Source: a virus. Taken from it: a stretch of 16,058 nucleotides of DNA. A program made the translations under genes and the position numbers. This document shows positions 95-16,058 of the stretch, one piece after another; positions within the stretch are counted from its first letter, which is position 1; each line of letters opens with the position of its first letter. The stretch is from the IMG/VR virus record IMGVR_UViG_3300029523_000035, positions 1-16,058 of that record; one strand, given 5' to 3'. The notes beneath the pieces are model-generated. The model was not told the DNA's origin and ran no database searches. It saw only the letters and a program-made list of their open reading frames with translations.

Positions 95-116
95 TTACAC
101 GAATTAACATCAATTA

Positions 117-866: not shown

Positions 867-886
867 AATTTTTTGTCCTCCTTAAT

Positions 887-1726: not shown

Positions 1727-1743
1727 ATACTTTCACCTCCTTT

Positions 1744-2496
1744 TTACCAAACTTTCATGAATAAATCACGACAAGCTTCTACAAGTTCTCTATTGATATT
1801 CTGTATTTGGTTTCGATATTCTTCGATAGCTTCGCTTGTTGATTTACCTCTTAGTCCTATCTCTTTTGTCTCTCTGTCTCTTTTGCTGTCTTTGTTGTCG
1901 TTTCCTGCATGATTATTTTTTGCACTTGTTGTAGTATTATTAACAGTCTCACCTCTACTCATAGCACTTGCATAATCTTGTGTTGCTACGCTAACTTGTG
2001 GGTTATCACTATCAATATTTTGGTAATTTTGGTTGTTTTTTACTTCGCTTTGTCCTGCATCTGTTGAGTTAGTCGTTGTTTTTTCGTTTCCTTTTTCTGC
2101 TTCTGTGGTTGTTATATTGACATTTGTAAAAGGGTTATCGTTTTGAATTGCATTATACAGTTTTGTATAATATGGCATCAATTCATGCATTTTTGCCATA
2201 AAAGCTGTTTTCCACATTCCTAGAGTTTCAAAGCCTATATAATTATTCCAATACCTAAGTAAAAAGTATGTTTTAAAAGTATACAGGTCTTTTCTATCCT
2301 CTGAGTAAAAAGGAAAATCAAAGTCAAAAAATTTTCCCTGTGTTTTGTCAATGATTCTTTGTACGGATAAGTCCATGCTCCATAGTTCTTGGGTCGGAAT
2401 AAAGCTTTCACAAATATCTTTGATTGTTGTAGTGTATTTACTCAATCTCGTCACCCTCTTTCCCTTTTTGCATATACTTATCGGGTATATATCCAT
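1744..2496 (-). CDS. Lower collar protein (phi29 gp11-like)
   Basis: Lies directly downstream of the portal gene. The FDFDFPFY...YFLLRYWNNYIGFETLGMWK...MPYYTKLYN region resembles lower-collar proteins of small podophages. The start is uncertain: ATG 2496 has no SD and overlaps the portal gene by 59 nt. In-frame TTG 2445 (SD GAGGGTGA 5 nt upstream, overlapping the portal stop) or GTG 2454 are better candidates. Confidence 0.7.
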   Translation of the reverse strand: MDIYPISICKKGKRVTRLSKYTTTIKDICESFIPTQELWSMDLSVQRIIDKTQGKFFDFDFPFYSEDRKDLYTFKTYFLLRYWNNYIGFETLGMWKTAFMAKMHELMPYYTKLYNAIQNDNPFTNVNITTTEAEKGNEKTTTNSTDAGQSEVKNNQNYQNIDSDNPQVSVATQDYASAMSRGETVNNTTTSAKNNHAGNDNKDSKRDRETKEIGLRGKSTSEAIEEYRNQIQNINRELVEACRDLFMKVW

Positions 2497-3337
2497 TAAT
2501 CATGGTAGGAAGCTCACTGTTAAAGTCAACTGTCACATTTAGTCCCCATAGTTCATTGATAGTGTTTGCGCATCTTCTTCTTAATGTCAGTCCTACATTT
2601 CTATTAGCTTCAATCTGACCGTTGTTTCCTGCCGTTTCACCTGTAACAAGCCGTTCTCCTTTTTCTACTGGGTTACTTTCATAACCTAAAGATGTCAATA
2701 CTTGTGACCATAAATCTCTTAATTCTTGTTCGCATTTATCTACGATATAAGGAGCGCCCACATCCAGAGCTTTAATATCTTTCAAGTTTAATGAATCGGA
2801 AACTTTTAGAACAGGTAAATAATTATCGTACATTTCTCCCAGTATTTCAAAGCTCATTTTTTCGTTGTCAGAAGAAGAAAGAGCAACAGGCGTACGCTGT
2901 GCATACATATTAATATCCTTTGTTTTCCAAGTATTCGCCATTGCATCGGCATACATCAATGCCTTATAGTAATACGGCATAGTTGAGTAGTTATTCCATA
3001 AGATACAACTGTTTTCTTTACCGTATTCTTCAATATACCCATTTGCAGTATAAGCGATTCTGTCTTGAGGGATATTATAAATATCTGGTAAACCCGATAA
3101 TGAAACATTCATGAATGCATACCCTGCAATATTGTCCTTGATGAATACACCCAAACCGTGCCAAAATAAGGTTTGTTCAATGTACATCGGTAAAATTTCT
3201 TTTGGTAGATTATTCCATTTGTACCTGTTTACAAAGATATCGAAAATATCATAAAAAAAGATAGATTTTATTATTTCAAAATCACTGTTTTTCTTTTTAT
3301 TGATATTTCGTTCGAAAACTCGTAACGGATTTTTCAC
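2438..3337 (-). CDS. Portal / upper collar connector protein (phi29 gp10-like)
   Basis: 299 aa. By-eye matches to phi29 gp10, ours vs gp10: YKWNNLP vs FEWENLP, AQRTPVAL vs AQKTPVLI, GAPYIVDKC vs DAPYVVDKL, KGERLVTGET vs KKERMVTDEV, INELWGLNVTVDF vs INELYGLNVKVKF. Size is similar (309 aa in phi29). Confidence 0.9.
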   Translation of the reverse strand: MKNPLRVFERNINKKKNSDFEIIKSIFFYDIFDIFVNRYKWNNLPKEILPMYIEQTLFWHGLGVFIKDNIAGYAFMNVSLSGLPDIYNIPQDRIAYTANGYIEEYGKENSCILWNNYSTMPYYYKALMYADAMANTWKTKDINMYAQRTPVALSSSDNEKMSFEILGEMYDNYLPVLKVSDSLNLKDIKALDVGAPYIVDKCEQELRDLWSQVLTSLGYESNPVEKGERLVTGETAGNNGQIEANRNVGLTLRRRCANTINELWGLNVTVDFNSELPTMINGYIPDKYMQKGKEGDEIE

Positions 3338-3353
3338 TTATATACACCTCCTT

Positions 3354-4970
3354 TTAGTTATTTAATAACCCGTAATTCCCTATATCATCAGTATGCCACA
3401 AAGTCACGCCATTGTCAAATATATTTCTCAATTTTTTCAATTGGTCTAAATCAATATCACCAGTAAATCCGCAATGAGATGTCTTTACGTAATTCCAATA
3501 GGCTCTTGAGTGTAAATAAGGGGTAGCGATTTTATTAATTGGATACCCGAACTGTTCAAAAAAGCTGTCTGCCATTTCTGCAAATTGCCTTTTACATGAC
3601 ATCTCGTAGAAGTCAACGCCACACTCTTTGATACCTGTCAATACATTTTCTGACAAAGCTTTTCCATGTGTAACCCCAGCGTTTCTGGCTCTGTCTGTCT
3701 GATTTGCTAACATTCCAAGAGCGTCCCAAAAAGCGTTCGTTGTTTTACCTAGTCCATTAAGCCCTCCCTGTAAACTTCCTCCTGCTAACCCTGCTATCGC
3801 TGTGCCTGTCCCTATGGTAGCATCAATGGCAGTATGGACTTGTGATAGGGCTATAGAACTTTTGTTTTGAGCTAGCCATGCACGATATGTGTCAGAGGAG
3901 AACGAACACATTGGAAAAGAGGAGTTAATAAGCGCTTCATTCATTAGTCCATGCCCTAATTCTTCGCGCGTCTTATAGTTTTTAGGTGCTGTGAGAACTT
4001 GTGGCAATGTTGCGATTGTCCCGTAGCTGTCAAATTCGAGAGATTTATCCCGATTATAACTGTATTCATATCTATATATATGTGTGTTCCCTTGATTGTT
4101 GTCAGCTAGACAGAATAGCCATGGGTAGGAGTATAACTTTTTATTTTTTGGTTTATAACCCTCAAAAACATTGTCAGATATCTGCATACTTGTTATTTTA
4201 GGCTTGATTTCTTTCCCTCCTAGAGCAAGTGTACATAATTTTGGAGACATGAACAATCCTACGACGGCATCTTGTGCGCCTTGATTGTTATAATCTTCTA
4301 ACAGTGTGTTAATTCCTTTTAGTCCCTCGTCTGTGGTTACATCATAATGACCGATGCTCCCCCAACAGTACACACCATTTTCTACTCGACCCTCAAACCA
4401 ACTTTGTTCCGCTGTTCCTCTTGTGACAAAGGCGCAACACTCCGTTGGTGTCAAATCCAATTTTTTATGCCGTGAAACGATAGTTTCACCTGTCTCTAAA
4501 TTTACTGGAATTAAATTTGCGCCGATAGAGTCGGCACTTCGTGGTATATGATGATATTCGACAAAACAAGGCTTAATATTTGCATCGTAAAAGTTATTCT
4601 GAAAAACATCTAAAGAAAAATTAATTCTAGTTGTTTTTTCGGATAACCACTCGATAGAGTCGATAAAACAAAAAACCCACTCGTTAGATATCCCACTATT
4701 TTGAAAAGCTAAATAATTGAGATTAAGTGCTTTCATCTCTGTGAATGGTACACGGATATCATAGTTTCCTATTCGAATCGGTGCAAGGTGTGACAAATCA
4801 ACATTATTAATATGTTTTCGGTAAGATTCTAGGTGATTTAATAAGTCCTCTTTTGAGTTGTATAATCTGACATGCTCATATTCGTTAGACCATGGTACTC
4901 CACTATACAATCTTAATTTTGTTTCGGGGTTGCGTGGTGCAACCCCTCCTTGAACTGGTAAATTTATCAT
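3354..4970 (-). CDS. Tail knob / distal tube protein (phi29 gp9-like)
   Basis: 538 aa. The N-terminus VPWSNEYEH matches gp9 VPFSNDYKN. The C-terminus FGYPINK...NYVKTSHCGFTGDIDLDQLKKLRNIFDNGVTLWHTDDIGNY closely matches gp9 YGYKINR...[41 protein letters not shown]. It has a Gly/Ala-rich loop region as in gp9. Confidence 0.9.
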   Translation of the reverse strand: MINLPVQGGVAPRNPETKLRLYSGVPWSNEYEHVRLYNSKEDLLNHLESYRKHINNVDLSHLAPIRIGNYDIRVPFTEMKALNLNYLAFQNSGISNEWVFCFIDSIEWLSEKTTRINFSLDVFQNNFYDANIKPCFVEYHHIPRSADSIGANLIPVNLETGETIVSRHKKLDLTPTECCAFVTRGTAEQSWFEGRVENGVYCWGSIGHYDVTTDEGLKGINTLLEDYNNQGAQDAVVGLFMSPKLCTLALGGKEIKPKITSMQISDNVFEGYKPKNKKLYSYPWLFCLADNNQGNTHIYRYEYSYNRDKSLEFDSYGTIATLPQVLTAPKNYKTREELGHGLMNEALINSSFPMCSFSSDTYRAWLAQNKSSIALSQVHTAIDATIGTGTAIAGLAGGSLQGGLNGLGKTTNAFWDALGMLANQTDRARNAGVTHGKALSENVLTGIKECGVDFYEMSCKRQFAEMADSFFEQFGYPINKIATPYLHSRAYWNYVKTSHCGFTGDIDLDQLKKLRNIFDNGVTLWHTDDIGNYGLLNN

Positions 4971-5203
4971 TCAATTATGACCTCCCTATCGTGGGCAGTT
5001 ATTAATTCTTTATCATTTATTAGCTTAATGGCTACTTTAGTTTTAATAGTTTGTTTCTTATCACAAGGTTTAAATAATACAGCGTTTAAACGGTTATCTA
5101 AATAGTAATATGATGTATCTCTATCCCAATGTAAATTTGAGCCGTCGTTGTTGTATATATCAGTAAAGTACAAATCTTTAATTAAATCGTTTGGGATAAA
5201 CAA
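4967..5203 (-). CDS. Small ORF in the head-fibre (gp8.5) position; probably not independently initiated
   Basis: 78 codons starting from a TTG with no SD. The same frame stays open, with no ATG/GTG/TTG, through the whole 104-nt gap (5204-5307) and into the 3' end of the capsid gene. Its stop overlaps the tail-knob start (ATGA). See the frameshift finding. Confidence 0.4.
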   Translation of the reverse strand: MFIPNDLIKDLYFTDIYNNDGSNLHWDRDTSYYYLDNRLNAVLFKPCDKKQTIKTKVAIKLINDKELITAHDREVIIE

Positions 5204-5307
5204 ATTTGTGTTATTGGCTAAACCAAGCTTATTCTTATTATATTTATTTAATTTTAGTTTAAAAGATGTAACATAGTCATAATAATCTATAGATTTAATA
5301 CTATTAA

Positions 5308-6579
5308 TTACATCTGTTTCGTAAAATTTACAGTCTTTGTGATAGTCTCGTCTGGTCTGTAGATTGCTTTTAACACAATAGTTCCTGTCTCGTCCGCTCC
5401 CGTATGAAGTAAATGTGTCCCTGGGATAACGTAAGTCTTTGCTGAGGTTGCACCGCTGTCAACTTCAAGAGTCACCAAATTCTGATGATACGTGCCAGTT
5501 CCACCTGCCACAGTAACCTCTACTTCCTGCGTCTGCCCAGCTGTATATGTTCCAGCTGTAACACTCAGTGTCGGCTTTTCAACCACAGCGTCTGTTGTAA
5601 ATACGCGAATTGGGTAGAAAGGACTTGCACTGACCATTTCCACCTGTGTATAGAAGTAATTCCAAGATAAGACGTTTGCAAGTCTTTGGTCTGTCATCTC
5701 TTTGAACTGGTCGCGGACATTGAAGAATCGCACATCACAAAGAACTCCCTGTATAGCGCTATTTGCAAATTTGTCTACAATCACTGTCTGAACTGCTACG
5801 TCTGCCTTGTCCATATGGAATGCATACGCTAAAGCGTCAACACTAATCTGTGCGTTAACTTCCGGTGTTGTAATCCAAATCAGATTCGTTGGCATAGCGT
5901 GTGACGTTGCTCCCGCCGGGTTGTTTTCCGGTAATGGGAAGCCAAACTCTCCGACAGCTCGCTTTACCTCAATCAATAACTTTTTCGCTGATGCTTCATC
6001 TACAATCGCGTCAACAGTCACTGCCGGAAGTACCTCTTTTTCATACCCCACATTAATTAAATCACGCATAGCGAGATACTCATCCCAGTTCGCCCCTGTG
6101 ATAGCACTCTCCATTTTTGCCATAATCATATCACGGATGCCATACTCACTTGTAAAAGCTTTTCTCAAGTTGTCATATGTAACCGTGACTGGGTACTGAA
6201 TTTCAAGATTTACATTATGAAATACGCTCATGATGTAAGACTGATACTGCTGAAAAGCGAATTTAAAGTCTGCCTGTGAATCATAGACACGACCTTTGCA
6301 CATATTTACATAAGTTTCTTCGTGTGTCTCACCATAACGCATTGGCTCTTTCTTAAATCGTGCTAACGGATTTCTCCACGCGATACTGTCCACCGTCTGC
6401 ATACCGATGCGGTTAATTAATGACGGAACAATTTCGTTCCGAACAGGGGCAAAATTCAGAATGTTATCATAGACAGCCTGTAAATTGTCTGAGACTTCCA
6501 CAGGCAAGTGGTTCTGAACCTCGAAAGAAAGCTCCTGTTTGACTGCTTTTAAAATGTTTTTATTTGTTGCGTCTGCCAT
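5308..6579 (-). CDS. Major capsid protein (phi29 gp8-like, HK97 fold) with C-terminal Ig-like domain
   Basis: 423 aa; RBS AAGGAGG. SLINRIGMQTV...NPLARFKKEPMRYGETHEETY matches gp8 SLVDRIGLVVI...[21 protein letters not shown], and VDALAYAFHMDKADV matches VDVLAKAFNMNRTDF. The C-terminal ~90 aa (TLSVTAGTYTAGQTQEVEVTVAGG...) looks like a BIG2-type Ig domain, as in gp8. Confidence 0.92.
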   Translation of the reverse strand: MADATNKNILKAVKQELSFEVQNHLPVEVSDNLQAVYDNILNFAPVRNEIVPSLINRIGMQTVDSIAWRNPLARFKKEPMRYGETHEETYVNMCKGRVYDSQADFKFAFQQYQSYIMSVFHNVNLEIQYPVTVTYDNLRKAFTSEYGIRDMIMAKMESAITGANWDEYLAMRDLINVGYEKEVLPAVTVDAIVDEASAKKLLIEVKRAVGEFGFPLPENNPAGATSHAMPTNLIWITTPEVNAQISVDALAYAFHMDKADVAVQTVIVDKFANSAIQGVLCDVRFFNVRDQFKEMTDQRLANVLSWNYFYTQVEMVSASPFYPIRVFTTDAVVEKPTLSVTAGTYTAGQTQEVEVTVAGGTGTYHQNLVTLEVDSGATSAKTYVIPGTHLLHTGADETGTIVLKAIYRPDETITKTVNFTKQM

Positions 6580-6593
6580 TTGTTAAAACCTCC

Positions 6594-6878
6594 TTACTCT
6601 GTCTTACCGTCAAAGTCCAAATCTTCAACGGTAATTTTTTCTTCTGTTTCGTCTTTTGACTCGCCTTTATCATCTGCACGAGTCGTACCCTCTGCCATTT
6701 TTTCCTTAAAGCGCTTTTTATACTCGCTCTCTAGCTTTAAATACTTGTCTTTCCATTCGCTGTCTGTTTCTCCGTCTCTTTCTCCCTCATAATTCTGTAA
6801 AACTTCAATCGCGTCACCGTGTTCCTCAACGTCTGCTACAGCGTCAATTAATTCGTTTAAAGCTTCATTAAAATCCAT
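6594..6878 (-). CDS. Scaffolding protein (phi29 gp7-like, by position and composition)
   Basis: 94 aa, very acidic (Glu/Asp/Lys-rich) and predicted helical. It lies immediately upstream of the capsid gene, as gp7 does in phi29. RBS AAGGAGGA. Confidence 0.6.
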   Translation of the reverse strand: MDFNEALNELIDAVADVEEHGDAIEVLQNYEGERDGETDSEWKDKYLKLESEYKKRFKEKMAEGTTRADDKGESKDETEEKITVEDLDFDGKTE

Positions 6879-6920
6879 GTAAATATCCTCCTTTTTATTT
6901 ATTACCCTTTTACAGTTTTA

Positions 6921-6949
6921 ATTATATCACCACGGAAAGAAAAAGTAAA
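6921..6949 (-). promoter_or_regulatory. Candidate sigma-A promoter ahead of the scaffold/capsid genes
   Basis: On the minus strand: TTTACT (6949-6944), 17-nt spacer, TGaTATAAT (extended -10, TATAAT = 6926-6921). The -35 lies inside the 3' end of the upstream gene. Confidence 0.45.
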
Positions 6950-7934
6950 GAGGCATTTTTTTCTTTTTTCCATGTGGGTGTACTGGGTATGGCGATAATG
7001 TCTGTAAATACGCATACCATTTTAACGCGTTCTTTTTTCTTTCCTCTTCTTTTTCAACTCCTGCACGCTCAAAATTTTTTAAAAATACAGACGCGAGATA
7101 ATCGGGTTCTTTTGTGGACTTTCGAAACTCTTCCCATGATACTGGATATTTTATTGTTTCTATCCATTGTCCACTACTTACAGTTTCTTCATCAAGCCAA
7201 ACACATTGATAATAACCATCTGTGATATCGTACCCGTGAGCGTTCGCCCAATCTGTATAGACTGTAGCTGGTGTCCACTGTACAAGACCATAGCCACCAT
7301 TATAGTTCCCCTCTTTTAAGGACTGCCATAATTCAGGGTTGATATTAGATTCTATCTCCATATTCCCCAACATTCCTGCAATGGCGTTCAAAGTGAAATC
7401 TTTGAAAAACATGGTACTATAGAAAACATAAGCATTGTTTTTCATCTCATCTTCTGTAAGATAACGGTTTCCATGAATCCATTCAAGGGGCATTCCTGCA
7501 CTGTCGCCATAACGATATATCTTTGTCCATGCGGACGGTTTGGAAACATATGTATTAATGCTGACCTGCTCGGGTAATGGATAACGCCCACTGTGCGCTC
7601 CCATAGTGACACCGCCACCCCCAACGCCGTTCCCACTATACACCATTTCTGTATGACCACTACGCCATACAATGTCCCCTGCCTGCCAAGCCTCATTGAT
7701 ACTAATCTCTTTAAATCCTGCCTGTAATAGATATCCCTCCTCTGTTCTTGTGGTGAACCATGGATTCACTGAAAAGAACCCACCTTCTGTAAGTGCTTTT
7801 GAAATAAAAGAGCTACAGTCATAATAAGTAATACCGTTCACGGTCTGTCCTCTTCGGTATTGCTGAGAATATCCAATGTTGGGGGCATTGCACGCATTGA
7901 CCGCCCACTGATAGGCTACATTAATATTTGGCAT
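6927..7934 (-). CDS. Tail-associated peptidoglycan hydrolase (NlpC/P60- or CHAP-like peptidase plus phage tail lysozyme domain; gp13 analogue)
   Basis: 335 aa. The N-terminal half has the Cys/His peptidase signature (YYDCSSFISKAL ... GDIVWRSGHTEMVY). The C-terminal half has the phage tail lysozyme-type motif (AGMLGNMEIESNINP ... GGYGLVQWTP). Its position between the lysis and morphogenesis genes parallels phi29 gp13. Confidence 0.8.
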   Translation of the reverse strand: MPNINVAYQWAVNACNAPNIGYSQQYRRGQTVNGITYYDCSSFISKALTEGGFFSVNPWFTTRTEEGYLLQAGFKEISINEAWQAGDIVWRSGHTEMVYSGNGVGGGGVTMGAHSGRYPLPEQVSINTYVSKPSAWTKIYRYGDSAGMPLEWIHGNRYLTEDEMKNNAYVFYSTMFFKDFTLNAIAGMLGNMEIESNINPELWQSLKEGNYNGGYGLVQWTPATVYTDWANAHGYDITDGYYQCVWLDEETVSSGQWIETIKYPVSWEEFRKSTKEPDYLASVFLKNFERAGVEKEEERKKNALKWYAYLQTLSPYPVHPHGKKKKMPLYFFFPW

Positions 7935-7950
7935 TTGCTATCCTCCTTAA

Positions 7951-7968
7951 ATGTTTCACGTGAAACAT
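7951..7968. promoter_or_regulatory. parS: parS-type site (perfect 18-bp palindrome ATGTTTCACGTGAAACAT)
   Basis: The core TGTTTCACGTGAAACA (7952-7967) equals the chromosomal parS consensus TGTTNCACGTGAAACA. It lies between the endolysin stop and the RBS of the tail hydrolase gene (AAGGAGG starts 2 nt away). Confidence 0.85.
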
Positions 7969-7970
7969 TT

Positions 7971-7986
7971 TGTTCCACGTGAATAA
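7971..7986. promoter_or_regulatory. Degenerate parS-like site (14/16)
   Basis: TGTTCCACGTGAATAA matches TGTTNCACGTGAAACA at 14/16 positions. It lies 2 nt from the perfect copy. Confidence 0.5.
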
Positions 7987-7990
7987 AAAA

Positions 7991-8977
7991 TTAAAGCATA
8001 TATAACATATCTTTTGCGTAAACGAATTCAGTTCCACAAGCGCGTGCCAGTCCTCCGCCAAATGTCCCAGGGCATTCTACTCCGTTCGGGTCTTTTCCCT
8101 GTAACAAACATATGATTTCCAGTGCTGTCACAAGATACTGAGTTTCACCCCTTTTTACATAATGTTTTCCTGCTTTTGCCCTTGTTTTTTTACCTACAAT
8201 ACCGTCTTCTGCAATGGTATAGCCATAGTCCTTATTCATTGCTCTCTGCACTACACGAACCGCCATTCTTTTAGTGTTTCTTCCAACAATGCCGTCAACA
8301 GCGATTTGAACACCCGTAAAATTAATGGCGTGCTGTTGCCCTAAAGCAATCAATTCATTTCTTGGTTTTGAGTGACTAGTAGACGGAGGCGGTGTAGTAG
8401 GTGTAGCACTTGAAACTCCGTAGTCTTTGTAAACGTGGTTCACATCACATCTTCCGTTAATACCATCAACAGACCCGTTACTAGAATACTGCCAAATATC
8501 AACATTATCTACACCTAACACATTCGAGTATCTAGCTATCCACAAATCATATCCCCATGTTTCACCGATATAACTCTCAAACCATGATTTACTAGCGTAG
8601 ATTCCTGCTTTATATCCATGCGTTAGCATTGCATCACAAAAGCGCTTTGCGTTGTGCTTTGCTACTCTTTGTGTCCCTTTTTCTTCGCTGTCAAAAAAGA
8701 CAGGTAGATTAGGTGTGTGTCCTTGTAACAATCTAAGACAATGATTGATTTCACCCTCGATTCTAGCTGTGGTTTTTGCGTAGGAATAAAAATATACTCC
8801 ATATGGAATACCCAACCGTTCACATTCACTGACGTTTCGACTCCATTGTTTATCGTCTTGCGATGCCATGTCTTGCCCGTATCCGCATCGAATAATTACA
8901 TAATCGACAGCGTTTTTTAATCTCTCAAAATCAATGACACCGTTATGATATGAGATATCTACAGCTTTTTTACTCAT
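7991..8977 (-). CDS. Endolysin: GH25 muramidase with C-terminal peptidoglycan-binding repeats
   Basis: 328 aa. The N-terminus VDISYHNGVIDF...YVIIRCGYG...GIPYGVYFYSY...DLWIARYS...IWQYSS.G.VDGI.G.CDVN is the classic GH25 pattern. A Pro/Thr/Ser linker follows. Two DGIVG(R/K)(N/K)T motifs are typical of PG_binding_1 domains. Confidence 0.85.
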   Translation of the reverse strand: MSKKAVDISYHNGVIDFERLKNAVDYVIIRCGYGQDMASQDDKQWSRNVSECERLGIPYGVYFYSYAKTTARIEGEINHCLRLLQGHTPNLPVFFDSEEKGTQRVAKHNAKRFCDAMLTHGYKAGIYASKSWFESYIGETWGYDLWIARYSNVLGVDNVDIWQYSSNGSVDGINGRCDVNHVYKDYGVSSATPTTPPPSTSHSKPRNELIALGQQHAINFTGVQIAVDGIVGRNTKRMAVRVVQRAMNKDYGYTIAEDGIVGKKTRAKAGKHYVKRGETQYLVTALEIICLLQGKDPNGVECPGTFGGGLARACGTEFVYAKDMLYML

Positions 8978-9206
8978 GTTTCATGTCCTCCTTACTATCA
9001 AAAATGTCACAGATACGTTGTAGTGCTAACGTATTATTATTTAGCGCGTTCGTAATATCTGTCATTTCTTCCTTGTGTTCTTCCGTCATTTTTTCAATTT
9101 TTTGGTCGTTTTTGTCCTCCCTGTACTTTACATACCACATGGACGCACACGCAACCACGGTCGGAAGTCCTAAACTATTAATTAATGTGATAACTTCATT
9201 TATCAT
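8970..9206 (-). CDS. Holin-like protein, BhlA/UviB family
   Basis: 78 aa from ATG 9206 (RBS AAGGAGGTG, 5-nt spacer). It has a single N-terminal TM segment (LINSLGLPTVVACASMWYV) followed by a charged coiled-coil tail, as in BhlA/UviB. It overlaps the endolysin start by 8 nt. The longer ORF-track version (to 9296) reads through a promoter and the parS sites and is rejected. Confidence 0.7.
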   Translation of the reverse strand: MINEVITLINSLGLPTVVACASMWYVKYREDKNDQKIEKMTEEHKEEMTDITNALNNNTLALQRICDIFDSKEDMKHE

Positions 9207-9227
9207 GATATCACCTCCTTTTTTTCT

Positions 9228-9256
9228 ATCATAACACAAATAGATTTGTTTGTAAA
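9228..9256 (-). promoter_or_regulatory. Sigma-A type promoter for the lysis/structural operon
   Basis: On the minus strand: TTTACA (9256-9251), 17-nt spacer, TGtTATGAT (-10 = 9233-9228). The holin RBS lies about 10 nt downstream. Confidence 0.65.
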
Positions 9257-9262
9257 TAAAAA

Positions 9263-9280
9263 ATGTTTCACGTGAAACAT
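9263..9280. promoter_or_regulatory. parS: parS-type site (perfect 18-bp palindrome)
   Basis: ATGTTTCACGTGAAACAT. It lies 6 nt from the -35 of the 9228-9256 promoter. On the minus strand it is followed by a T-tract, so it could also act as an intrinsic terminator hairpin. Confidence 0.85.
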
Positions 9281-9295
9281 TGTCCACGTGAAACA
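9280..9295. promoter_or_regulatory. Degenerate parS-like site (14/16)
   Basis: TTGTCCACGTGAAACA has a perfect right half and two mismatches in the left half. It abuts the perfect copy. Confidence 0.5.
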
Positions 9296-9415
9296 TGTTG
9301 TACGTTACAAAATAATCGAATCAAAGGGGACGCAAAGCCAAAAATTGATATCGAACTACTTGTTCATGTGCGTGTATATCAATTACAATGTTCGTGTTAT
9401 TTTGGGTACAACATT

Positions 9416-9444
9416 ATGATAACACATATAATTTAAAATGTCAA
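9416..9444 (-). promoter_or_regulatory. Strong sigma-A type promoter
   Basis: On the minus strand: TTGACA (9444-9439), 17-nt spacer, TGtTATCAT (-10 = 9421-9416). The -35 shares its first base with the parS palindrome 9444-9461. Confidence 0.7.
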
Positions 9445-9461
9445 TGTTTCACGTGAAACAT
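9444..9461. promoter_or_regulatory. parS: parS-type site (perfect 18-bp palindrome)
   Basis: ATGTTTCACGTGAAACAT. It overlaps the stop codon of the packaging ATPase gene on one side and the -35 TTGACA on the other. Confidence 0.85.
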
Positions 9462-10507
9462 TAAAAAGATATGGCATCAAATATCATATTCTTACACTCC
9501 AAATTTTCAAACATAAGTAAACCTCTATTGAAATATTCACGCAACATTGCTACAATATAATGCGTTGAATTCACACGTATAGCTGTGTTGTCTATGACAT
9601 CATTTTTTGTAAAGCATATCCGCATCGGAAAACTTTCATCTGCCCCTGTTGATATATACATACATGTATCATATCTTCTTGCGTTGTACATTTTTTCGTT
9701 GAACTTAATAGTGCAAATATACCGTGATTGTCCTGTTGGTTTCCCTATTAAGCAATCATTATCATTCAAATATCTATTTTCACTTGCATACGCATTATAA
9801 CTAGCACCTTGAAACGCTCTAGCAATACCACTTTCCTTATAAGCTGTGGACGCATTTTCATTATACGTTCGCTCAAATACCCAACCATCTCCACGCAATA
9901 TTTTAGTATTATATTTTAGCATTTTATTGATACCAAAAACGCTATAATAAGGGTTCAACAATGACACGGTATTTGATGCCATATATAACATAACTCTTCT
10001 ATGCTGTTTTCCGTGACCTGCACTAATCGTTGTAAGCAACGATAAAAGTTTATTTACTTCATTAGATAAATATACGTTATCTTCATCTTGATATTCGTCA
10101 AAAAATACAGAACGAATATTGACAAATAACCCACGCATTTTTTTATACTTTCTTGCAACAGATAAAGCTAAACAATATCCACATGGCTCTTCATTTAGAA
10201 ATAGTTGTATCAATGAGCCATTCATTAAACTCTTTTCAGTCATAACATAACCGTCAAATTGTTCAGATATATCACCAAAATATGTATCAGCACAGTTTTT
10301 CATATCAACAACATTCCTGTATAAATAAATAAATTGGTTTTCGGGTCTGTATTTATCCTTTAAAAAATCAGATACTTGTCTAGACTTAATGGAATAACTT
10401 TTGCCTGCTGTTCTATTTCCATCTACAATATAAATATCGGGTGTTTCCCCATTTTTATCTTTTAAAGTTAATAATCTATCGCAATGATAATATCCATCAT
10501 TCATCAT
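9461..10507 (-). CDS. DNA encapsidation (packaging) ATPase, phi29 gp16-like
   Basis: Walker A is DGNRTAGKSY and Walker B is VFFDEYQDE. At ~348 aa it is comparable to gp16. The preferred start is ATG 10507 (GGAGGTG 6 nt upstream). ATG 10522 has no SD and in fact forms part of that SD. Confidence 0.88.
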   Translation of the reverse strand: MMNDGYYHCDRLLTLKDKNGETPDIYIVDGNRTAGKSYSIKSRQVSDFLKDKYRPENQFIYLYRNVVDMKNCADTYFGDISEQFDGYVMTEKSLMNGSLIQLFLNEEPCGYCLALSVARKYKKMRGLFVNIRSVFFDEYQDEDNVYLSNEVNKLLSLLTTISAGHGKQHRRVMLYMASNTVSLLNPYYSVFGINKMLKYNTKILRGDGWVFERTYNENASTAYKESGIARAFQGASYNAYASENRYLNDNDCLIGKPTGQSRYICTIKFNEKMYNARRYDTCMYISTGADESFPMRICFTKNDVIDNTAIRVNSTHYIVAMLREYFNRGLLMFENLECKNMIFDAISF

Positions 10508-10524
10508 TTTTAGCACCTCCATTC

Positions 10525-10542
10525 ATGTTTCACGTGAAACAT
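10525..10542. promoter_or_regulatory. parS: parS-type site (perfect; extends to the 20-bp palindrome CATGTTTCACGTGAAACATG, 10524-10543)
   Basis: Sits between the early-operon terminator and the ATPase RBS. Confidence 0.85.
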
Positions 10543-10544
10543 GA

Positions 10545-10578
10545 GTTTTATAAAAGAGGTGGCATATAGCCACCCCCC
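10545..10578 (-). terminator. Rho-independent terminator of the early transcription unit
   Basis: On the minus strand: GGGGTGGC-tatat-GCCACCTC (8-bp stem, one G-U pair) followed by TTTTATAAAA. It lies 43 nt after the stop of the 116-aa gene. Confidence 0.7.
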
Positions 10579-10620
10579 TTTAGAAGAAGAGAAATAAAAT
10601 GGTATTCTCACGGCATCATA

Positions 10621-10971
10621 TTATAAATTTGATACGTCTAAGGTACAATTGATATAATCGCGTCCTGCTTTTGTCTTTCCGCTAATTTTAATGATAGAGA
10701 ATTTTTCTCCCTCCATGACACTTTCAATGTCTTTCAAAGACTGTCTAAAGGTTGCAGACTGTCCAGAATACACTTTCTTATCCGGCGTAATAATACTTAC
10801 AATCTCCTGCACATCTCCGTTATCTTTGATATCATCAAAGATAAGATATCCGTCAATTGGGATAGATTCTCCATCATCAATATTTTTTAATGGCTCAATG
10901 TCTGGTGCTGTAGTCATAAGATACTTCTCGACCTTTGTAAACTCTCTACTCATTTCTTTAATTTCTACCAT
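10621..10971 (-). CDS. Hypothetical early protein (116 aa); candidate DNA-binding replication accessory protein by position only
   Basis: Good RBS (AGGAGGTAAAG). Second gene of a short unit with its own promoter, placed between the polymerase and the terminator. This is analogous to phi29 genes 5/6 (SSB/DBP). I recognise no motif. Confidence 0.55.
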   Translation of the reverse strand: MVEIKEMSREFTKVEKYLMTTAPDIEPLKNIDDGESIPIDGYLIFDDIKDNGDVQEIVSIITPDKKVYSGQSATFRQSLKDIESVMEGEKFSIIKISGKTKAGRDYINCTLDVSNL

Positions 10972-10995
10972 AATTCTTTACCTCCTGTTTTCCTG

Positions 10996-11295
10996 TTAAT
11001 CTTCCTTTTTCATTTCCTGCAACTCTGCTTCAGTAACAATTTTTTCACTCTTAACATCTGAGTTGAGTAAGAACTGCTCATCAGTCATAACACGTTTTTC
11101 CAATTTAAACTTAATGTCTAAAATGGAAACAATGTCCCCTTTGTACTGCTTTTCAATCAAGATTTCCGCTTTATCTCTTGTCTTGCAATTTGGTAATTTC
11201 TCGTCAAAGTAATCTTTCTTGATTACCCCTGTCTCCTTGTCTTTGTAGATTCTTTCTACAGATACCTCCGCTGTGACTAATGTCCTTGTAAACAT
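10996..11295 (-). CDS. Hypothetical early protein (99 aa)
   Basis: Start ATG 11295 is preceded by AAAGGAGGAAAACAAG. The ORF-track extension to 11382 runs through the promoter and lacks an RBS. The protein is Lys/Glu-rich. No motif recognised. Confidence 0.6.
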   Translation of the reverse strand: MFTRTLVTAEVSVERIYKDKETGVIKKDYFDEKLPNCKTRDKAEILIEKQYKGDIVSILDIKFKLEKRVMTDEQFLLNSDVKSEKIVTEAELQEMKKED

Positions 11296-11349
11296 CTTGT
11301 TTTCCTCCTTTTTTCTGTTTCTTTGAGTGTGAATTGCAATGTAATATGT

Positions 11350-11426
11350 TTTATTTATTACATTATTATAATAACACAACAACTAGATATAGTCAAGTGT
11401 TATATTATAATTTTTATTTTTTATCT
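11350..11426. repeat. Direct repeat copy A (~77 bp) carrying a promoter
   Basis: About 85% identical to 11624-11695. The first 28 nt (TTTATTTATTACATTATTATAATAACAC) are identical in both copies. Confidence 0.85.
11368..11396 (-). promoter_or_regulatory. Sigma-A type promoter (repeat copy A)
   Basis: On the minus strand: TTGACT (11396-11391), 17-nt spacer, TGtTATTAT (-10 = 11373-11368). It drives the 99-aa and 116-aa genes. Confidence 0.7.
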
Positions 11427-11601
11427 AAATCTCTTACATATATACTATCTGTATCAGCATATAAAAAACCATCACGAATAGTGATAAGTTTAGCCGTAAT
11501 CTCAGCGTTTTTTAAATTTGTATCAGTTCTTACATTACTACTATGTGACATTGAGCTTACCCCGTACAAGCTGTTTAACGGATGTTCAATTTTTTACCCA
11601 T
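11414..11601 (-). pseudogene. DNA polymerase B-derived relic / mini-ORF, frame-interrupted at an A6 run
   Basis: A strong RBS (AAAGGAGG) and ATG 11601 open only 8 codons (MGKKLNIR*). The -1 frame is open from 11593 to 11414 and reads KIEHPLNSLYGVSSMSHSSN...ITIRDGFLYADTDSIYVRDLDKK. Compare this phage's own polymerase: LNNLYGKFAMSDNSS (motif B) and FCYADTDSIHLIGLDK (motif C). One extra A in the run 11590-11595 would fuse the frames into a 62-aa ORF. Confidence 0.4.
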
Positions 11602-11623
11602 CTTTGTTCCTCCTTTTTTCTAC

Positions 11624-11695
11624 TTTATTTATTACATTATTATAATAACACGACGCTAAAATATAGTCAAGTATTATATCATAATTTTTTTATCT
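11624..11695. repeat. Direct repeat copy B (~72 bp) carrying a promoter; overlaps the polymerase stop codon
   Basis: See copy A. Confidence 0.85.
11642..11670 (-). promoter_or_regulatory. Sigma-A type promoter (repeat copy B)
   Basis: On the minus strand: TTGACT (11670-11665), 17-nt spacer, TGtTATTAT (-10 = 11647-11642). It lies immediately after the DNA polymerase stop (11674). Confidence 0.7.
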
Positions 11696-13560
11696 TTTTG
11701 AGCGTGGATTTTAAAGTCTTTATTTCTTAATACAATACCACCTTTCACACGCTCTGCTTTTAAATTACAACTATCCATACTAAGACCTGTAGATAACTCA
11801 GATATGTCCTTTTCTTCTTCAATAAATTTACGTTTAGCTTGGCTACTCATTCCACAAGCTTTAATATCAAGATAAGGCTTGCAAGGGACATGATTTTCTT
11901 CAACTATATGCTCTGCATAAGTCTTTTGGCGCTCATAATACGCAAAATCAAAAGTACTTTCACATTTCCAGCAACAAAAATTTGTCGGGTGTTCTACCAC
12001 CTTGTTTGCTTTGTCAAGTCCAATTAAATGAATCGAATCTGTATCAGCGTAGCAAAAACGGTCATAATTTGCCATAGCGTGTCGAATTGTAAAATTCATG
12101 GCATAAGATGTAATGGCACTACCTATTGGAATATATCCTACTTTCTTTTCGTGTTCCTCATGCAGAATAAATCTAATAATACCATCATCGTCAAGATAAG
12201 GCTCTTTATAAGAGGAGTTATCCGACATTGCAAATTTCCCATAAAGATTATTTAAAAAGAGTTTTGCTTTCTGTCTCTTAAAACCTTTTGAAGTTCTTTT
12301 CTCTTCACCGTATTTATCTATGTATTCATCGAAAAAACCTGTCCTTGCATAGAACCACACATAATCATATATGACCAAGTCAAAAATATCGTAAGTTTCC
12401 TTAAACAACTCCCAGTCGGTGCAAGTCATAGTGAGTGTAATATTTGTATCATGCATCTGTCCATCAATATCACGATAATATCGGTAGTATTCGCCTTTAT
12501 ACCTAACGTTGGAGCTATATAGATTTTCATTCGCCTTATATAATGTACTCTGTCTAATATGTACCCATGGAAAAGCTCCTTTTTTTAACTGAAAACGACA
12601 GTTAAATCGAATGAAAAAATATTTATTATCGGAGCTTATAAGTTCATCGGGTGGCGCTCCCCTATGGTATTCCCCGTGCCCAAATGGATATTTGTTGCCA
12701 CTAATGCTATGCATCATGGACGGGTACAGAGAGTTTACGTCAAGCACTAAACCCCAACCAACTACCGTGTGCGCATATTGAGGATTAACATAACACCATC
12801 CCCCGTGAAATGATTTATGAACATAATCCCACTGATTCCATACACCTGTTATTGATTCATCAAGATAATCTTCTCTGATATCGGGAAACAACTTATCATA
12901 TTGTTTCTTTTCATAAAAGCCTTTAAATTCTGCCAAACAGCACGAACCTATTGTCAATTTATCATGCTTTTCGTCAAACATCATTTCTAATGCTTCTTTT
13001 AACACTAACACATCATTTTCAATATATTTCTTTTCACTTTCTGTTATTTCGCAATAAGCGTACCTTTCACCCTCATAATTCATGTCTAATTTTTGGTGTT
13101 TTGTGTCAAATGATTTCCCGATATTTTTCAATGAGGATGGCATAAGCTTTAAAGAGTTTCGAATCTCCAAAAAAGTCTTATTCCATTTTAATTTAACCCA
13201 GTACCATGAGCCCATATCAGATATACAGGTTTGAAATTCTTTTGATTTCATTTCTTTATCTTTACAGTGCACCCAACGCCAACCCTCTTTTAACAGAAAA
13301 TCAATGATGAATGAACCGTCAAAAGCGAGGTTATGAAAGTACAATATATTATTGCCTTTCATTGTCAAAAACCTGTTTAAAAAATCTCTTATCGAATGAG
13401 TTATTGTTACAGTTTCAGTGTTGTCATATAAAGCCACATCAGCCCCACTCCATACTTCTGTACTGTCTTGTTTTTTACCTTTTTCTTGCTCTACTTTTTC
13501 ACCCCATACCGTTGTCTCAAAGTCACAAGCCCAAAAGGTTATTTGCTTTTTTCGTGGCAT
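11674..13560 (-). CDS. Protein-primed family B DNA polymerase (phi29 gp2-like)
   Basis: 628 aa. Motifs seen: ExoI CDFETT, ExoII YFHNLAFDGSFI, ExoIII YIENDVLVL, motif A LDVNSLYPSMM, motif B KLFLNNLYGKF, motif C YADTDSIH, and KxY QKTYAEH. The long spacing between motifs B and C is consistent with a TPR2 insertion. Confidence 0.97.
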   Translation of the reverse strand: MPRKKQITFWACDFETTVWGEKVEQEKGKKQDSTEVWSGADVALYDNTETVTITHSIRDFLNRFLTMKGNNILYFHNLAFDGSFIIDFLLKEGWRWVHCKDKEMKSKEFQTCISDMGSWYWVKLKWNKTFLEIRNSLKLMPSSLKNIGKSFDTKHQKLDMNYEGERYAYCEITESEKKYIENDVLVLKEALEMMFDEKHDKLTIGSCCLAEFKGFYEKKQYDKLFPDIREDYLDESITGVWNQWDYVHKSFHGGWCYVNPQYAHTVVGWGLVLDVNSLYPSMMHSISGNKYPFGHGEYHRGAPPDELISSDNKYFFIRFNCRFQLKKGAFPWVHIRQSTLYKANENLYSSNVRYKGEYYRYYRDIDGQMHDTNITLTMTCTDWELFKETYDIFDLVIYDYVWFYARTGFFDEYIDKYGEEKRTSKGFKRQKAKLFLNNLYGKFAMSDNSSYKEPYLDDDGIIRFILHEEHEKKVGYIPIGSAITSYAMNFTIRHAMANYDRFCYADTDSIHLIGLDKANKVVEHPTNFCCWKCESTFDFAYYERQKTYAEHIVEENHVPCKPYLDIKACGMSSQAKRKFIEEEKDISELSTGLSMDSCNLKAERVKGGIVLRNKDFKIHAQKDKKIMI

Positions 13561-13577
13561 TTATACTCACCTCTTTT

Positions 13578-14288
13578 TTATTCATTCTCAATAACAATAT
13601 CTTGTTCCTGTAGAAATTCTTGAAAATCTTCTGTAGAACTAAGAACACCCATTCTTCGCAAAATATTCCAAAACACAGCGTCAACCGTAGCTTTGTCCAT
13701 ATATGGCTCTGTTGGGAATGCTTCGGGTTCTTTTGCGTATGTATAAGCAAATAACGCTCTTTCTTTATCTGACGCATTAGCCAGTAAAGCATCTGTTTTT
13801 TCTCTAAGGTAACTCGCTGTTTTTGGTACAAAACTTTCTAAAGAATCGTACCACGAATCAATAATAGCTTCATAATCTAATACAGGTGTTGTTTCAATAA
13901 CTATTATACCCGTCCTTTGTAGCTTTTTCAATTCTTCAACCGTAGTATAACCTTGTATTCTAGCATATTCCTGCTCTTGCGGAGTTAATTTTATAAAAAC
14001 TCTGTTTCTTTCAAGAGCGTGTTTACGTCCATATTCTTTAGAAGTTATAACCTCGCCAGTAAGCATATCAACAACCGTTGCATTTTTTCGTATTTCTTTT
14101 GCAATCTGCTTTTTAATTCTATCTATTGAAACTTGCGTTGGATTTTTTACTCGCTTAATTATCTTTACTTGTACACCTTGTTTCTGTTGATTTCTAACAC
14201 GAGCTAGATATTTATTATATTCTTTAGCATATTGCTGTTGCAATATAGACGCTTTTGTTTGTTTCTTTTTAATACGCTTATTTGCCAT
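13578..14288 (-). CDS. Putative terminal protein (phi29 gp3 analogue)
   Basis: 236 aa, immediately upstream of the polymerase as in phi29. It has a very basic N-terminal third (MANKRIKKKQTK...RVRNQQKQ) and an acidic C-terminal region. ITRs imply a terminal protein. Assigned by synteny and composition only. Confidence 0.6.
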   Translation of the reverse strand: MANKRIKKKQTKASILQQQYAKEYNKYLARVRNQQKQGVQVKIIKRVKNPTQVSIDRIKKQIAKEIRKNATVVDMLTGEVITSKEYGRKHALERNRVFIKLTPQEQEYARIQGYTTVEELKKLQRTGIIVIETTPVLDYEAIIDSWYDSLESFVPKTASYLREKTDALLANASDKERALFAYTYAKEPEAFPTEPYMDKATVDAVFWNILRRMGVLSSTEDFQEFLQEQDIVIENE

Positions 14289-14291
14289 ATT

Positions 14292-14486
14292 TTAGTTACC
14301 CTCCTTTTGCACCTTTCTTAATAATAATCCGTGAGGTACACGGGTATATTCAATGCTGTCTCCCGGGTGGATGTCTAAATCTCGGATTGCTTCTTTTGGT
14401 ATCATGACACGGGCGGTGTAACCGCCTGTGCCTCCTTTCGTAAACATAACTTTGTAACGCAATAATTGATTTGTTAATTTTGCCAT
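14292..14486 (-). CDS. AbrB/SpoVT-family DNA-binding protein (putative transcriptional regulator)
   Basis: 64 aa. ARVMIPKEAIRDLDIHPGDSIEY...LLLRKV fits the swapped-hairpin SpoVT-AbrB signature (vtIPkeiRd.LgikeGD.ve). It occupies the slot of phi29 gene 4 (regulator p4), just upstream of the terminal protein gene. Confidence 0.7.
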   Translation of the reverse strand: MAKLTNQLLRYKVMFTKGGTGGYTARVMIPKEAIRDLDIHPGDSIEYTRVPHGLLLRKVQKEGN

Positions 14487-14496
14487 ATTTTCCTCC

Positions 14497-14961
14497 TTAT
14501 AATATGTTAAATACTTTCCATGTAAATTCTGAAAAGTGTTCTGCTATGAATGATACAGAAGATAAGAAAAGATATAGTAAAAATGTTGCCATAATTATAA
14601 CCGATAAGATTCCCAAAAAAGATGATATTTTTTCTAATTTGGTAAATGGCTCTTTTTCTTCTGTAGTTGTATGCCTTGCTATCCATTCTGTAGGATTTTC
14701 ATGCAATGTTTCACGTGAAACATTATCTGAATCGATTTTATGATTTTGAAATGTCTCTATATAGTCTTTATTTCCCTTAGTATCAATGGTATAGGCTTCT
14801 CCATCAAAACCCACATAAATGTTTTTATTAGTATACAAATTTTCTACCCAGTAGGGTTCGTCTACAAATAAGGCTATGTAGTTGTTTAGTGAGTTTTCAG
14901 TGTGAAAGTCGTGTATTTCTACACCAAAATCTGTGATATTATGTAATCTGTATTTAATCAT
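14497..14961 (-). CDS. Early membrane-anchored protein of unknown function
   Basis: 154 aa; RBS AAGGAGAGG. It has a C-terminal hydrophobic segment (ISSFLGILSVIIMATFLLYLFLSSVSF). It contains an in-frame parS palindrome (coding NVSRET). Confidence 0.6.
   Translation of the reverse strand: MIKYRLHNITDFGVEIHDFHTENSLNNYIALFVDEPYWVENLYTNKNIYVGFDGEAYTIDTKGNKDYIETFQNHKIDSDNVSRETLHENPTEWIARHTTTEEKEPFTKLEKISSFLGILSVIIMATFLLYLFLSSVSFIAEHFSEFTWKVFNIL
14706..14723. promoter_or_regulatory. parS: parS-type site (perfect 18-bp palindrome), intragenic
   Basis: ATGTTTCACGTGAAACAT inside the 154-aa early gene. Confidence 0.8.
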
Positions 14962-15379
14962 TTTTACCTCTCCTTAAAAATCTTGAATAATATCTTGTTC
15001 CCCATATATCGTCTATAGAATTTAAAATATCCTCATATTTACTATAGTCTACGTCATTAATTTGTTGACATAATGTTGCCACTCTGCCCCATTGAATATG
15101 AAAACTATCTCTAGCATTATCATATAAACCCCCTAACACATCTTTAAAAAATTCAATTAATTCTACACTAATACTTGTACTAAATATATATAATTCATCT
15201 TTAATATAAAAACAATAACAAGTATTATCTATTGAAACCGTAACAATAGAATCTTTAGTGCTATACCTCTGCACTATTGTTAATAAGGATTCGTCTGTGT
15301 ATAACGCCTCACTTCTAACTATGTGCCCTGTATTAGAATTAATTACAACGACTTTAACTCTATTAATTTCTTCGTTCAT
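14954..15379 (-). CDS. Hypothetical early protein (141 aa)
   Basis: RBS AAAGGAGGTAT. Its stop overlaps the next start (ATGA-type coupling). No motif recognised. Confidence 0.6.
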   Translation of the reverse strand: MNEEINRVKVVVINSNTGHIVRSEALYTDESLLTIVQRYSTKDSIVTVSIDNTCYCFYIKDELYIFSTSISVELIEFFKDVLGGLYDNARDSFHIQWGRVATLCQQINDVDYSKYEDILNSIDDIWGTRYYSRFLRRGKND

Positions 15380-15395
15380 TTTTTATACCTCCTTT

Positions 15396-15695
15396 TTAAC
15401 ATAAATCATCTATACTATTATTAACAAACTCTAATTTCTCACATACAAATTTCTTACAATATAATCTACCATCACTTGTTACAATAAAAATATCACTAAT
15501 ATGTGTAGACGCATCTTCGATAAAATATACAATCACGTCAAATAATTTATCGTCTAATGATAATGTTGTGTGCAATGTCTCATTTGCTTTATCTTTTAAA
15601 TAATCAATAAAGCCATCAACAGTGCTAGACTTCATAATATCACAAAGTTCCTCACCAAAGCTATCCCATATTTTTTCGTCATATTTAATCTTCAT
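15396..15695 (-). CDS. Hypothetical early protein (99 aa, acidic)
   Basis: RBS AAAGGAGGAAT; tightly packed in the early operon. No motif recognised. Confidence 0.6.
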   Translation of the reverse strand: MKIKYDEKIWDSFGEELCDIMKSSTVDGFIDYLKDKANETLHTTLSLDDKLFDVIVYFIEDASTHISDIFIVTSDGRLYCKKFVCEKLEFVNNSIDDLC

Positions 15696-15697
15696 TT

Positions 15698-15916
15698 TTA
15701 TTCCTCCTTTTCATAGTATCTTTTTTCCCAACAAGCATATAATTCACGTAGTCTGTTTTCTTCATTATCTCGCTCTACATCTGTAAAGTCTGATAACTCT
15801 AAATAGGCTGATATCCTGCCCATTTGCATTATGAAAGCTACTAAAGCTTTATCATACTTCCCTAACTCAATGTCTTGTTTAAATGTGTCATAAAATAATT
15901 GATACTTTTCATTCAT
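15698..15916 (-). CDS. Hypothetical early protein (72 aa)
   Basis: First gene after the right-end promoter; RBS AAGGAGGGA. No motif recognised. Confidence 0.6.
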   Translation of the reverse strand: MNEKYQLFYDTFKQDIELGKYDKALVAFIMQMGRISAYLELSDFTDVERDNEENRLRELYACWEKRYYEKEE

Positions 15917-15963
15917 TATTTTTTCCCTCCTTATATTTACTAGGTTTCCTTGTTTCTATAATT

Positions 15964-15992
15964 ATAATACCACACGCCTGTTCGTTTGTCAA
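15964..15992 (-). promoter_or_regulatory. Right-end early sigma-A promoter
   Basis: On the minus strand: TTGACA (15992-15987), 17-nt spacer, TATTAT (15969-15964). The -35 lies 1 nt inside the ITR boundary, and the A-rich inner ITR could serve as an UP element. Confidence 0.7.
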
Positions 15993-15993
15993 G

Positions 15994-16058
15994 TATTTTT
16001 TCGTGCTTTTTTAATCAAAAGGGGGTCGTGGTCTCATTGGGAATAACGAAAGCCCTCT
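15994..16058. repeat. Right inverted terminal repeat (65 bp)
   Basis: Reverse complement of nt 1-65 with one mismatch (16026). Confidence 0.95.

Follow-up and report, generated by a model that had tools for sequence, protein, structure and literature searches.

Conserved Copies of the Chromosomal parS Palindrome in a phi29-like Phage Genome with No Recognizable ParB

The DNA analyzed here is the viral record IMGVR_UViG_3300029523_000035 of IMG/VR, positions 1 to 16,058, and this whole stretch of 16,058 nucleotides is referred to as the window. The window is a complete linear genome of 16 kb, the ends of which form 65-nt inverted terminal repeats, and all of its sizeable genes are on the minus strand. 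Pfam matches of its open reading frames (ORFs) to the connector, the gp9 tail knob, Phi29_MCP, the gp16 ATPase, and a DNA polymerase of family B that is protein-primed (PolB) identify it as a phi29-like podophage. The element under study is an 18-bp palindrome, ATGTTTCACGTGAAACAT, the core of which has the sequence of the bacterial centromere site parS. Five exact copies are present, and they are designated sites A to E in the order in which the minus strand is read.

14706-14723: site A, an exact match inside the early ORF 14497-14961 (minus strand), where the reading frame gives ...D N V S R E T L...
10525-10542: site B, with a terminator-like hairpin on one side and the gp16 ribosome-binding site on the other, its centre 11 bp upstream of that ORF
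9444-9461: site C, which shares with gp16 the last base of the stop codon; its own last base is the first T of a -35 box TTGACA
9263-9280: site D, the 3' arm of a small-RNA terminator, separated by 6 nt from the downstream -35 box of the lysis promoter
7951-7968: site E, followed 2 nt downstream by AAGGAGG, the ribosome-binding site of the gp13-like tail lysin gene (6927-7934)

An earlier note on this DNA had reported the five copies, and an exact pattern search of the window returned the palindrome at 7951, 9263, 9444, 10525, and 14706 and nowhere else. The density is approximately one site per 3 kb. Four of the five sites lie within 7951-10542, which bears out the description of the cluster as mid-genome. 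The base composition of the window predicts 5.2e-6 copies of the 16-mer core, where the note had 4e-6, and 5.3e-7 copies of the 18-mer. No match to the 18-bp palindrome was obtained in any of 200 dinucleotide-preserving shuffles of the window. These values, together with the conservation in relatives described below, confirm that the copies are not a product of chance.

The 16-bp core matches the fully symmetric form of parS at 16 of 16 positions in all five copies and fits the inverted-repeat consensus TGTTNCACGTGAAACA. It is letter-for-letter identical to TGTTTCACGTGAAACA, which is given in PMC10197239, citing Livny 2007, as the parS consensus used for the mapping of bacterial centromeres; the identity proposed earlier for the core is thus the literature form. 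In the mouse gut consortium described in PMC10197239, all 12 genomes, several Clostridia among them, contain ParABS and 1-10 sites of the same consensus. Pfam and PHROGs detected neither ParA or ParB nor any further partition domain in the window ORFs of at least 60 aa, as had been noted before, and no integrase among the ORFs scanned. The assignment of the palindromes as host-type parS, made by sequence identity, is well supported. The probable reading, put forward with moderate confidence, is that they are genuine chromosomal-type parS sites which selection has kept, for the binding of host ParB (Spo0J), on a virulent phi29-like phage of gut Firmicutes that lacks a ParB of its own.

At least 80 relatives of the window are present in IMG/VR, with capsid proteins 89-99% identical and nucleotide identities of 80-94%. 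The sites hold the same five positions in nearly all of these relatives, and each contig contains 2 to 6 perfect copies. Alignments made site by site give a conservation of 97-99% for the 18 palindrome columns, compared with 68-91% for the 120 flanking columns. The values for the intergenic and junctional sites are 97.2% against 84% for site B (75 relatives), 99.2% against 88% for site C, which is perfect in 72 of 80 relatives, 97.5% against 90% for site D (81 sequences), and 98% against 91% for site E (71 relatives). Site A is located in a coding region, and its palindrome columns are 97.6% conserved in 60 relatives, compared with a mean of 68% for the flanks. All of the synonymous third positions of site A are kept, and they are still retained where the upstream part of the early ORF is only about 55% conserved. 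The rare variants of the sites are one-sided substitutions, and no palindrome-preserving or compensatory change was observed among the relatives. This pattern is that of a sequence-specific protein site and not of an RNA stem. The palindromes are under strong purifying selection at the level of DNA.

The same 16-mer is found in other phages of the phi29 type. phi29 itself contains four consensus-perfect sites, TGTTTCACGTGGAACA, at 10445, 15903, 17243, and 18760, and Nf contains two perfect sites. In the 18 kb of the Clostridium perfringens phage phiCPV4 there are three perfect sites and four with one mismatch, mostly arranged as pairs (4812/4838, 7846/7871, 9949, and 11824/11849). This genome shows that the density in the window is not special, contrary to the earlier assertion that it exceeds that of any chromosome. 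One perfect site each is present in HM2, CS229P2, the Hungatella phage CH17P1, and the C. innocuum phage CI130P2, and two of three uncultured gut phi29-like genomes have one or two sites. The Enterococcus phage Athos has one site, and the Glutamicibacter phage Voltaire has two that are adjacent (8742/8761). The sites in phiCPV4, Voltaire, and others lie for the most part in short gaps between genes, and they often form pairs spaced 19-26 bp apart. A four-protein tblastn panel classes as phi29-like 19 of the first 80 IMG/VR contigs listed with the exact 16-mer, many of the multi-copy contigs among them. Perfect parS sites were not found in the family members GA-1, SRT01hs, PumA1, Aurora, Cp-1, P68, and asccphi28 or in the Bifidobacterium, Eggerthella, and Curtobacterium phages.

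Outside the near clade, none of the other parS-bearing phages has a homologue of the early proteins of the window, the AbrB-like protein included. An identical 16-mer in phages with unalignable DNA and no common early or regulatory protein leaves the host factor ParB as the only plausible common binder. Host ParB had been named as the obvious partner of the sites, and the wider comparison sustains that choice.

Four of the five sites abut expression signals: sites C and D are at -35 boxes, and sites B and E are at ribosome-binding sites. The gp16 ATPase gene is bracketed by sites B and C, and a candidate gene for a packaging RNA (pRNA) is bracketed by sites C and D. The genes and signals around the sites are listed in the order of the minus strand.

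14292-14486, minus: AbrB/MazE-fold protein of 64 aa (Pfam PF04014, E=3e-7)
11674-13560, minus: protein-primed family-B polymerase, PolB (Pfam)
10552-10582, minus: terminator-like element with an A-tract, a GC hairpin (GGTGGC/GCCACC), and a T-tract, 9 bp from site B; it ends the transcription unit on the SSB side and was read directly from the sequence, a simple terminator scan not having listed it
9461-10522, minus: gene for the gp16-type DNA encapsidation ATPase (Pfam Podovirus_Gp16, E=5e-30), flanked by sites B and C
9416-9444, minus: promoter-like site of the small RNA, TTGACA, a 17-nt spacer, and TG-extended TATCAT (11/12 consensus match)
9253-9409, minus: candidate small RNA, in which a terminator follows a structured core of about 113 nt (9409 to 9297)
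9280-9296, minus: half-copy of the palindrome (ATGTTTCACGTG and a variable tail; the 16-mer at 9280-9295 is TTGTCCACGTGAAACA), the 5' arm of a 14-bp hairpin with site D
9228-9256, minus: promoter-like site of the holin and lysis unit, TTTACA, a 17-nt spacer, and TG-extended TATGAT, ahead of the holin and endolysin genes
start at 9209, minus: holin gene (PHROG 4898)
7971-7986, minus: degenerate copy of the palindrome, TGTTCCACGTGAATAA, just after the stop codon of the GH25 endolysin
6927-7934, minus: gp13-like tail lysin gene (Pfam)

When up to three mismatches are allowed, the search finds three further places: one unrelated site and the two neighbours, 7971-7986 and 9280-9295. Both neighbours had been described as 14/16 copies. 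They exist, and the score of 14/16 applies only to the N-containing consensus TGTTNCACGTGAAACA, from which each differs at two bases; three bases differ from the symmetric 16-mer. The half-copy and site D form a 14-bp hairpin from 9296 to 9263 that is followed by the T-run TTTTTATTT, and this element is predicted to be an intrinsic terminator by both the terminator scan and the fold. Only a 12-nt half of 9280-9296 is conserved in relatives. Site E and the degenerate copy can pair in a 13-bp hairpin with one G-U, as read directly from the sequence. No T-run follows this hairpin, and it is not a canonical terminator. The combination of a GC-containing hairpin and a T-run that defines an intrinsic terminator was not found at sites A, B, C, or E. 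For the two near copies, a role as 5' arms of RNA hairpins, with a terminator in one case, appears to be a better explanation than that of independent weak ParB sites. L161, a more distant relative, ends the small RNA with an ordinary terminator and has its parS pair downstream as a separate element. That arrangement makes the terminator role of site D in the window clade look like an add-on, a secondary merger of the two elements. A parS site also forms the core of an intrinsic terminator in MT835854 (10425-10465), where the flanks GGTAC/GTACC pair and a T-run follows, approximately 150 nt downstream of the ATPase gene.

The RNA between sites C and D occupies approximately 155 nt of non-coding sequence downstream of gp16, with a minimum free energy of -41 kcal/mol and z=-3.97. 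In 78 sequences, the TGACA of its -35 box is invariant and the -10 box is TATnAT; this promoter is the best match of the region. The RNA has a closing helix between its 5' and 3' ends and seven covarying pairs (78 sequences). Whole helices are exchanged in a compensatory manner between the window clade (TTGATAT/ATATCAA) and L161 (GCCCGG/CCGGGC). A pair of loops is complementary in both clades, as ACGCA/UGCGU in the window clade and as GAAUCA/UGAUUC in L161. Covarying complementary loops are a hallmark of pRNAs, the sequences of which are known to diverge strongly. The Rfam pRNA model gave no match in the window even at E up to 1, and only chance-level miRNA and sRNA matches were obtained. By its structure and covariation, the small RNA at 9253-9409 is probably the phage pRNA, placed directly after gp16. 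The annotated pRNA of Nf and GA-1 lies in the left early region, as does that of phi29.

The position of parS beside gp16 recurs. A site is located within approximately 100 bp of the gp16 ORF in the window (9445/10526), phi29 (17243), CS229P2, phiCPV4 (4838), and at least six metagenomic lineages. Contigs with such a site are L001 (5780), L138 (5952), and L185 (3812), together with L135, L143, L199, and L162. This recurrence is suggestive; it could stem from an old conserved placement or from larger intergenic gaps at that point. A different arrangement is found in four IMG/VR contigs that are not phi29-like (L112, L114, L152, and L164; GC 50-54%), which contain 3-5 exact parS sites within 1-2 kb. 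These arrays may be the centromeres of phage-plasmids with their own ParB.

Two alternative explanations do not involve host ParB. One is that the palindromes act mainly on RNA or transcription, as hairpins that terminate, attenuate, process, or stabilize transcripts, with the likeness to parS being secondary. The terminator made by site D and its half-copy, the potential 13-bp hairpin at site E, the parS in the terminator stem of MT835854, and the long hairpins that the phiCPV4 and Voltaire pairs 19-26 bp apart would form are all in keeping with it. An RNA function does not account for the same 16 letters in phages with unalignable DNA, and no variation that preserves pairing was observed. 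Furthermore, the single sites A, B, and C would provide only a 7-bp AU-rich stem with no T-run, site A lies in a coding region, and in L161 the small RNA uses an ordinary terminator with the parS pair apart. The explanation is considered distinctly unlikely, and a pure RNA hairpin was rejected as the primary one on the lack of compensatory variation and the identity of the letters across unrelated genomes. Very unlikely is the proposal that the sites are operators of a phage DNA-binding protein, the 64-aa AbrB/MazE-like protein or another early protein, that times the switch from early to late expression. The genome does encode the AbrB/MazE-fold protein and several early proteins to which PHROGs assigned no function, and sites C and D abut -35 boxes while B and E abut ribosome-binding sites. 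These early proteins have no homologue in other parS phages beyond the near clade, and yet the identical site is present there. The three early-promoter repeat blocks of the window have no parS, and the sequence is exactly that of a known host-protein site. A phage-encoded binder was therefore rejected as a general explanation, the early proteins not being common to the parS-bearing phages.

A further possibility retains host ParB as the binder and reverses the benefit. With five sites on each of hundreds of replicating phage genomes, ParB would be drawn off the origin by titration, and SMC loading and ParA (Soj) control would be disturbed, and with them segregation, replication initiation, or entry into sporulation, so that the cell stays productive. 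A high density of sites on a high-copy replicon is what titration would call for. The trait is carried by phages of non-spore-formers, and the absence of Spo0A-box enrichment described below likewise fits a use of ParB that is independent of sporulation. In Bacillus subtilis, the loss of Spo0J allows Soj to block sporulation, which also counts in favor of titration. On the other side, conserved positions beside promoters and the packaging module would not be needed for titration. The sole experimental precedent, phi29, points to Spo0J helping the phage genome into the spore (PMC2731898). Titration is regarded as unlikely.

The reading of the palindromes as parS sites kept for host ParB has its closest precedent in phi29, for which PMC2731898, summarizing Meijer et al. 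2005, reports five parS sites and implicates Spo0J in the prespore segregation of the phage genome. The earlier note had cited phi29 only for its reported need of Spo0J; with parS sites on phi29 itself, the phenomenon is one already described. Both phages are virulent, ParB-less, protein-primed podophages with several host-type parS sites, and in both one site is immediately after the stop codon of the gp16 ATPase gene. The two genomes have no DNA similarity. The PolB of the window is 34% identical to that of phi29, and the genes of the window are all on one strand. The sites of the window are fully symmetric and extended to an 18-bp palindrome, and they are integrated with the promoter and terminator of the candidate pRNA gene beside gp16, which differs from the phi29 type. 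The remaining differences from phi29 are the lack of Spo0A-box enrichment and the host, probably a gut Clostridium.

The host assignment is based on relatives. The PolB of the window shares 46% identity with its counterparts in the Clostridium symbiosum phages CS229P1-3, and the isolates closest to the window infect C. symbiosum. The host is probably a gut Clostridium and not Bacillus. On long contigs, no endolysin homologue exceeds 51% identity. A 13-kb contig from a GTDB species-representative metagenome-assembled genome (MAG), CAKSDT010000047.1, comes from a close relative of the phage; it encodes an endolysin 88% identical to that of the window and contains four parS sites. The binning of this phage contig into a bacterial genome is a weak hint of a Clostridia host and at the same time a contamination flag for the MAG.

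Several observations weigh against host ParB capture for spore entrapment, or against the broader reading. The endolysin search of GTDB genomes returned a single match, and this is the phage's own contig, binned within an "uncultured Clostridia" MAG. Spo0A boxes (TGTCGAA), the companion feature in phi29, occur twice in the window (4557 and 12080) where 1.63 are expected, and neither is at a promoter. With no enrichment of these boxes, the full spore-entrapment circuit of phi29 is not evident. Perfect sites are present in 7 of 14 phi29-like phages of spore-formers and in 2 of 9 of non-spore-formers (Fisher p=0.23), in a small and phylogenetically non-independent sample of isolates with known hosts. 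Seven spore-former phages with no perfect sites and two non-spore-former phages with sites indicate that spore entrapment cannot be the general selective reason; Voltaire and Athos place the trait in phages of non-spore-forming hosts. Strict spore entrapment, one of the roles listed in the earlier note, is weakened by the Spo0A-box and host results. Finally, the tight coupling of the sites to promoters, a terminator, and ribosome-binding sites could mean that a role at the level of transcription is the main selected function instead.

If the palindromes are bound by host ParB, the protein would nucleate at the sites and spread as a CTP-dependent clamp over much of the 16-kb genome. The ParB-DNA complex could then couple the phage DNA to the origin-segregation machinery of the host. 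In this way daughter cells or forespores might receive a non-replicating or stalled phage genome, a role already reported for phi29, and occupancy by ParB could dampen expression of the packaging and lysis modules. Segregation with the host chromosome, by analogy with phi29, is the best-supported guess for the downstream role. A more general use, whether carriage into daughter cells, damping of the packaging and lysis promoters by ParB, or titration of ParB, is at least as likely as strict spore entrapment because the Spo0A boxes are not in excess and the link to spore-formers is not significant.

A more extended proposal is tentative and rather unlikely. It holds that host parS capture is a module, independent of sporulation and widespread among the phi29-like phages of Bacillota and Actinomycetota, which in the window clade has been wired into the packaging unit. 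ParB at sites B/C and C/D would gate the promoters of the pRNA, the ATPase, and the lysis genes, and the state of ParB and the chromosome cycle would select between lysis and a silent, segregating carrier. Were this proposal correct, virulent gut phages would persist in a non-lysogenic manner and travel with host cells or spores between guts.

The sites can also be compared with known centromere systems. The chromosomal parS/ParB (Spo0J) centromeres of Firmicutes and other bacteria, reportedly described by Lin and Grossman in 1998, have the identical 16-bp inverted repeat in multiple clustered copies. Those copies are around oriC, whereas the sites of the window are on a 16-kb linear viral genome with no cis-linked parAB. 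The ParABS cassettes of plasmids, and of plasmid-prophages including P1 and N15, encode their own ParA and ParB and have private parS sites. They share with the window the presence of centromere repeats on an extrachromosomal viral replicon; the window has no ParA or ParB and copies the site of the host chromosome. In the other phi29-like phages with unannotated parS the copy number is 1 to 7, and the positions differ from those in the window. No mention of parS sites is made in the paper describing phiCPV4 (PMC3362512). In the literature on Picovirinae and gut podophages, no report of parS was found beyond phi29 and Nf, and no paper was found that notes parS in C. perfringens or gut phi29-like phages.

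The sites of the window are therefore an unusually clean new example of a phenomenon first described for phi29 and not a new category. The additions made here are the recurrence beyond Bacillus, the integration with the gp16 and candidate pRNA genes, the reinterpretation of the near copies, and the missing Spo0A arm. If host ParB does load on the genome, lytic gut podophages could ride with the chromosome into daughter cells or spores without lysogeny, which would bear on the persistence of virulent phages in the gut, their transmission with spore-forming commensals, and the safety or stability of such phages in therapy. The patchy distribution in the family, with non-sporulating hosts and site-less close relatives, provides a natural comparative set for parS function. 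With five perfect sites on 16 kb of linear DNA, the window would be a compact natural substrate for the ParB-CTP clamp.

Some further features of the genome were recorded. A GH25 endolysin and a weak match to the phi29 SSB are also among the window proteins by Pfam, and no GenBank phage has DNA-level similarity to the window. No terminal protein was identified in the window by homology. By analogy with phi29, the combination of a protein-primed PolB and terminal repeats indicates that the genome ends should carry terminal-protein caps. The promoter-block repeats are at 11350-11422, 11624-11696, and 15935-16016, the third copy being at the right end. Between two of the duplicated blocks is a 51-aa ORF (11414-11569, minus strand) with a fragment that resembles motif C of PolB (...LYADTDSIYV...). 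The DNA at 11434-11474 within this ORF duplicates polymerase-gene DNA at 12024-12064 (repeat D9), and the ORF appears to be what is left of a duplicated part of that gene. A strong terminator-like hairpin with 14 pairs and a T-run is located at 62-96 (minus strand), at the inner edge of the left terminal repeat and downstream of the last tail gene.

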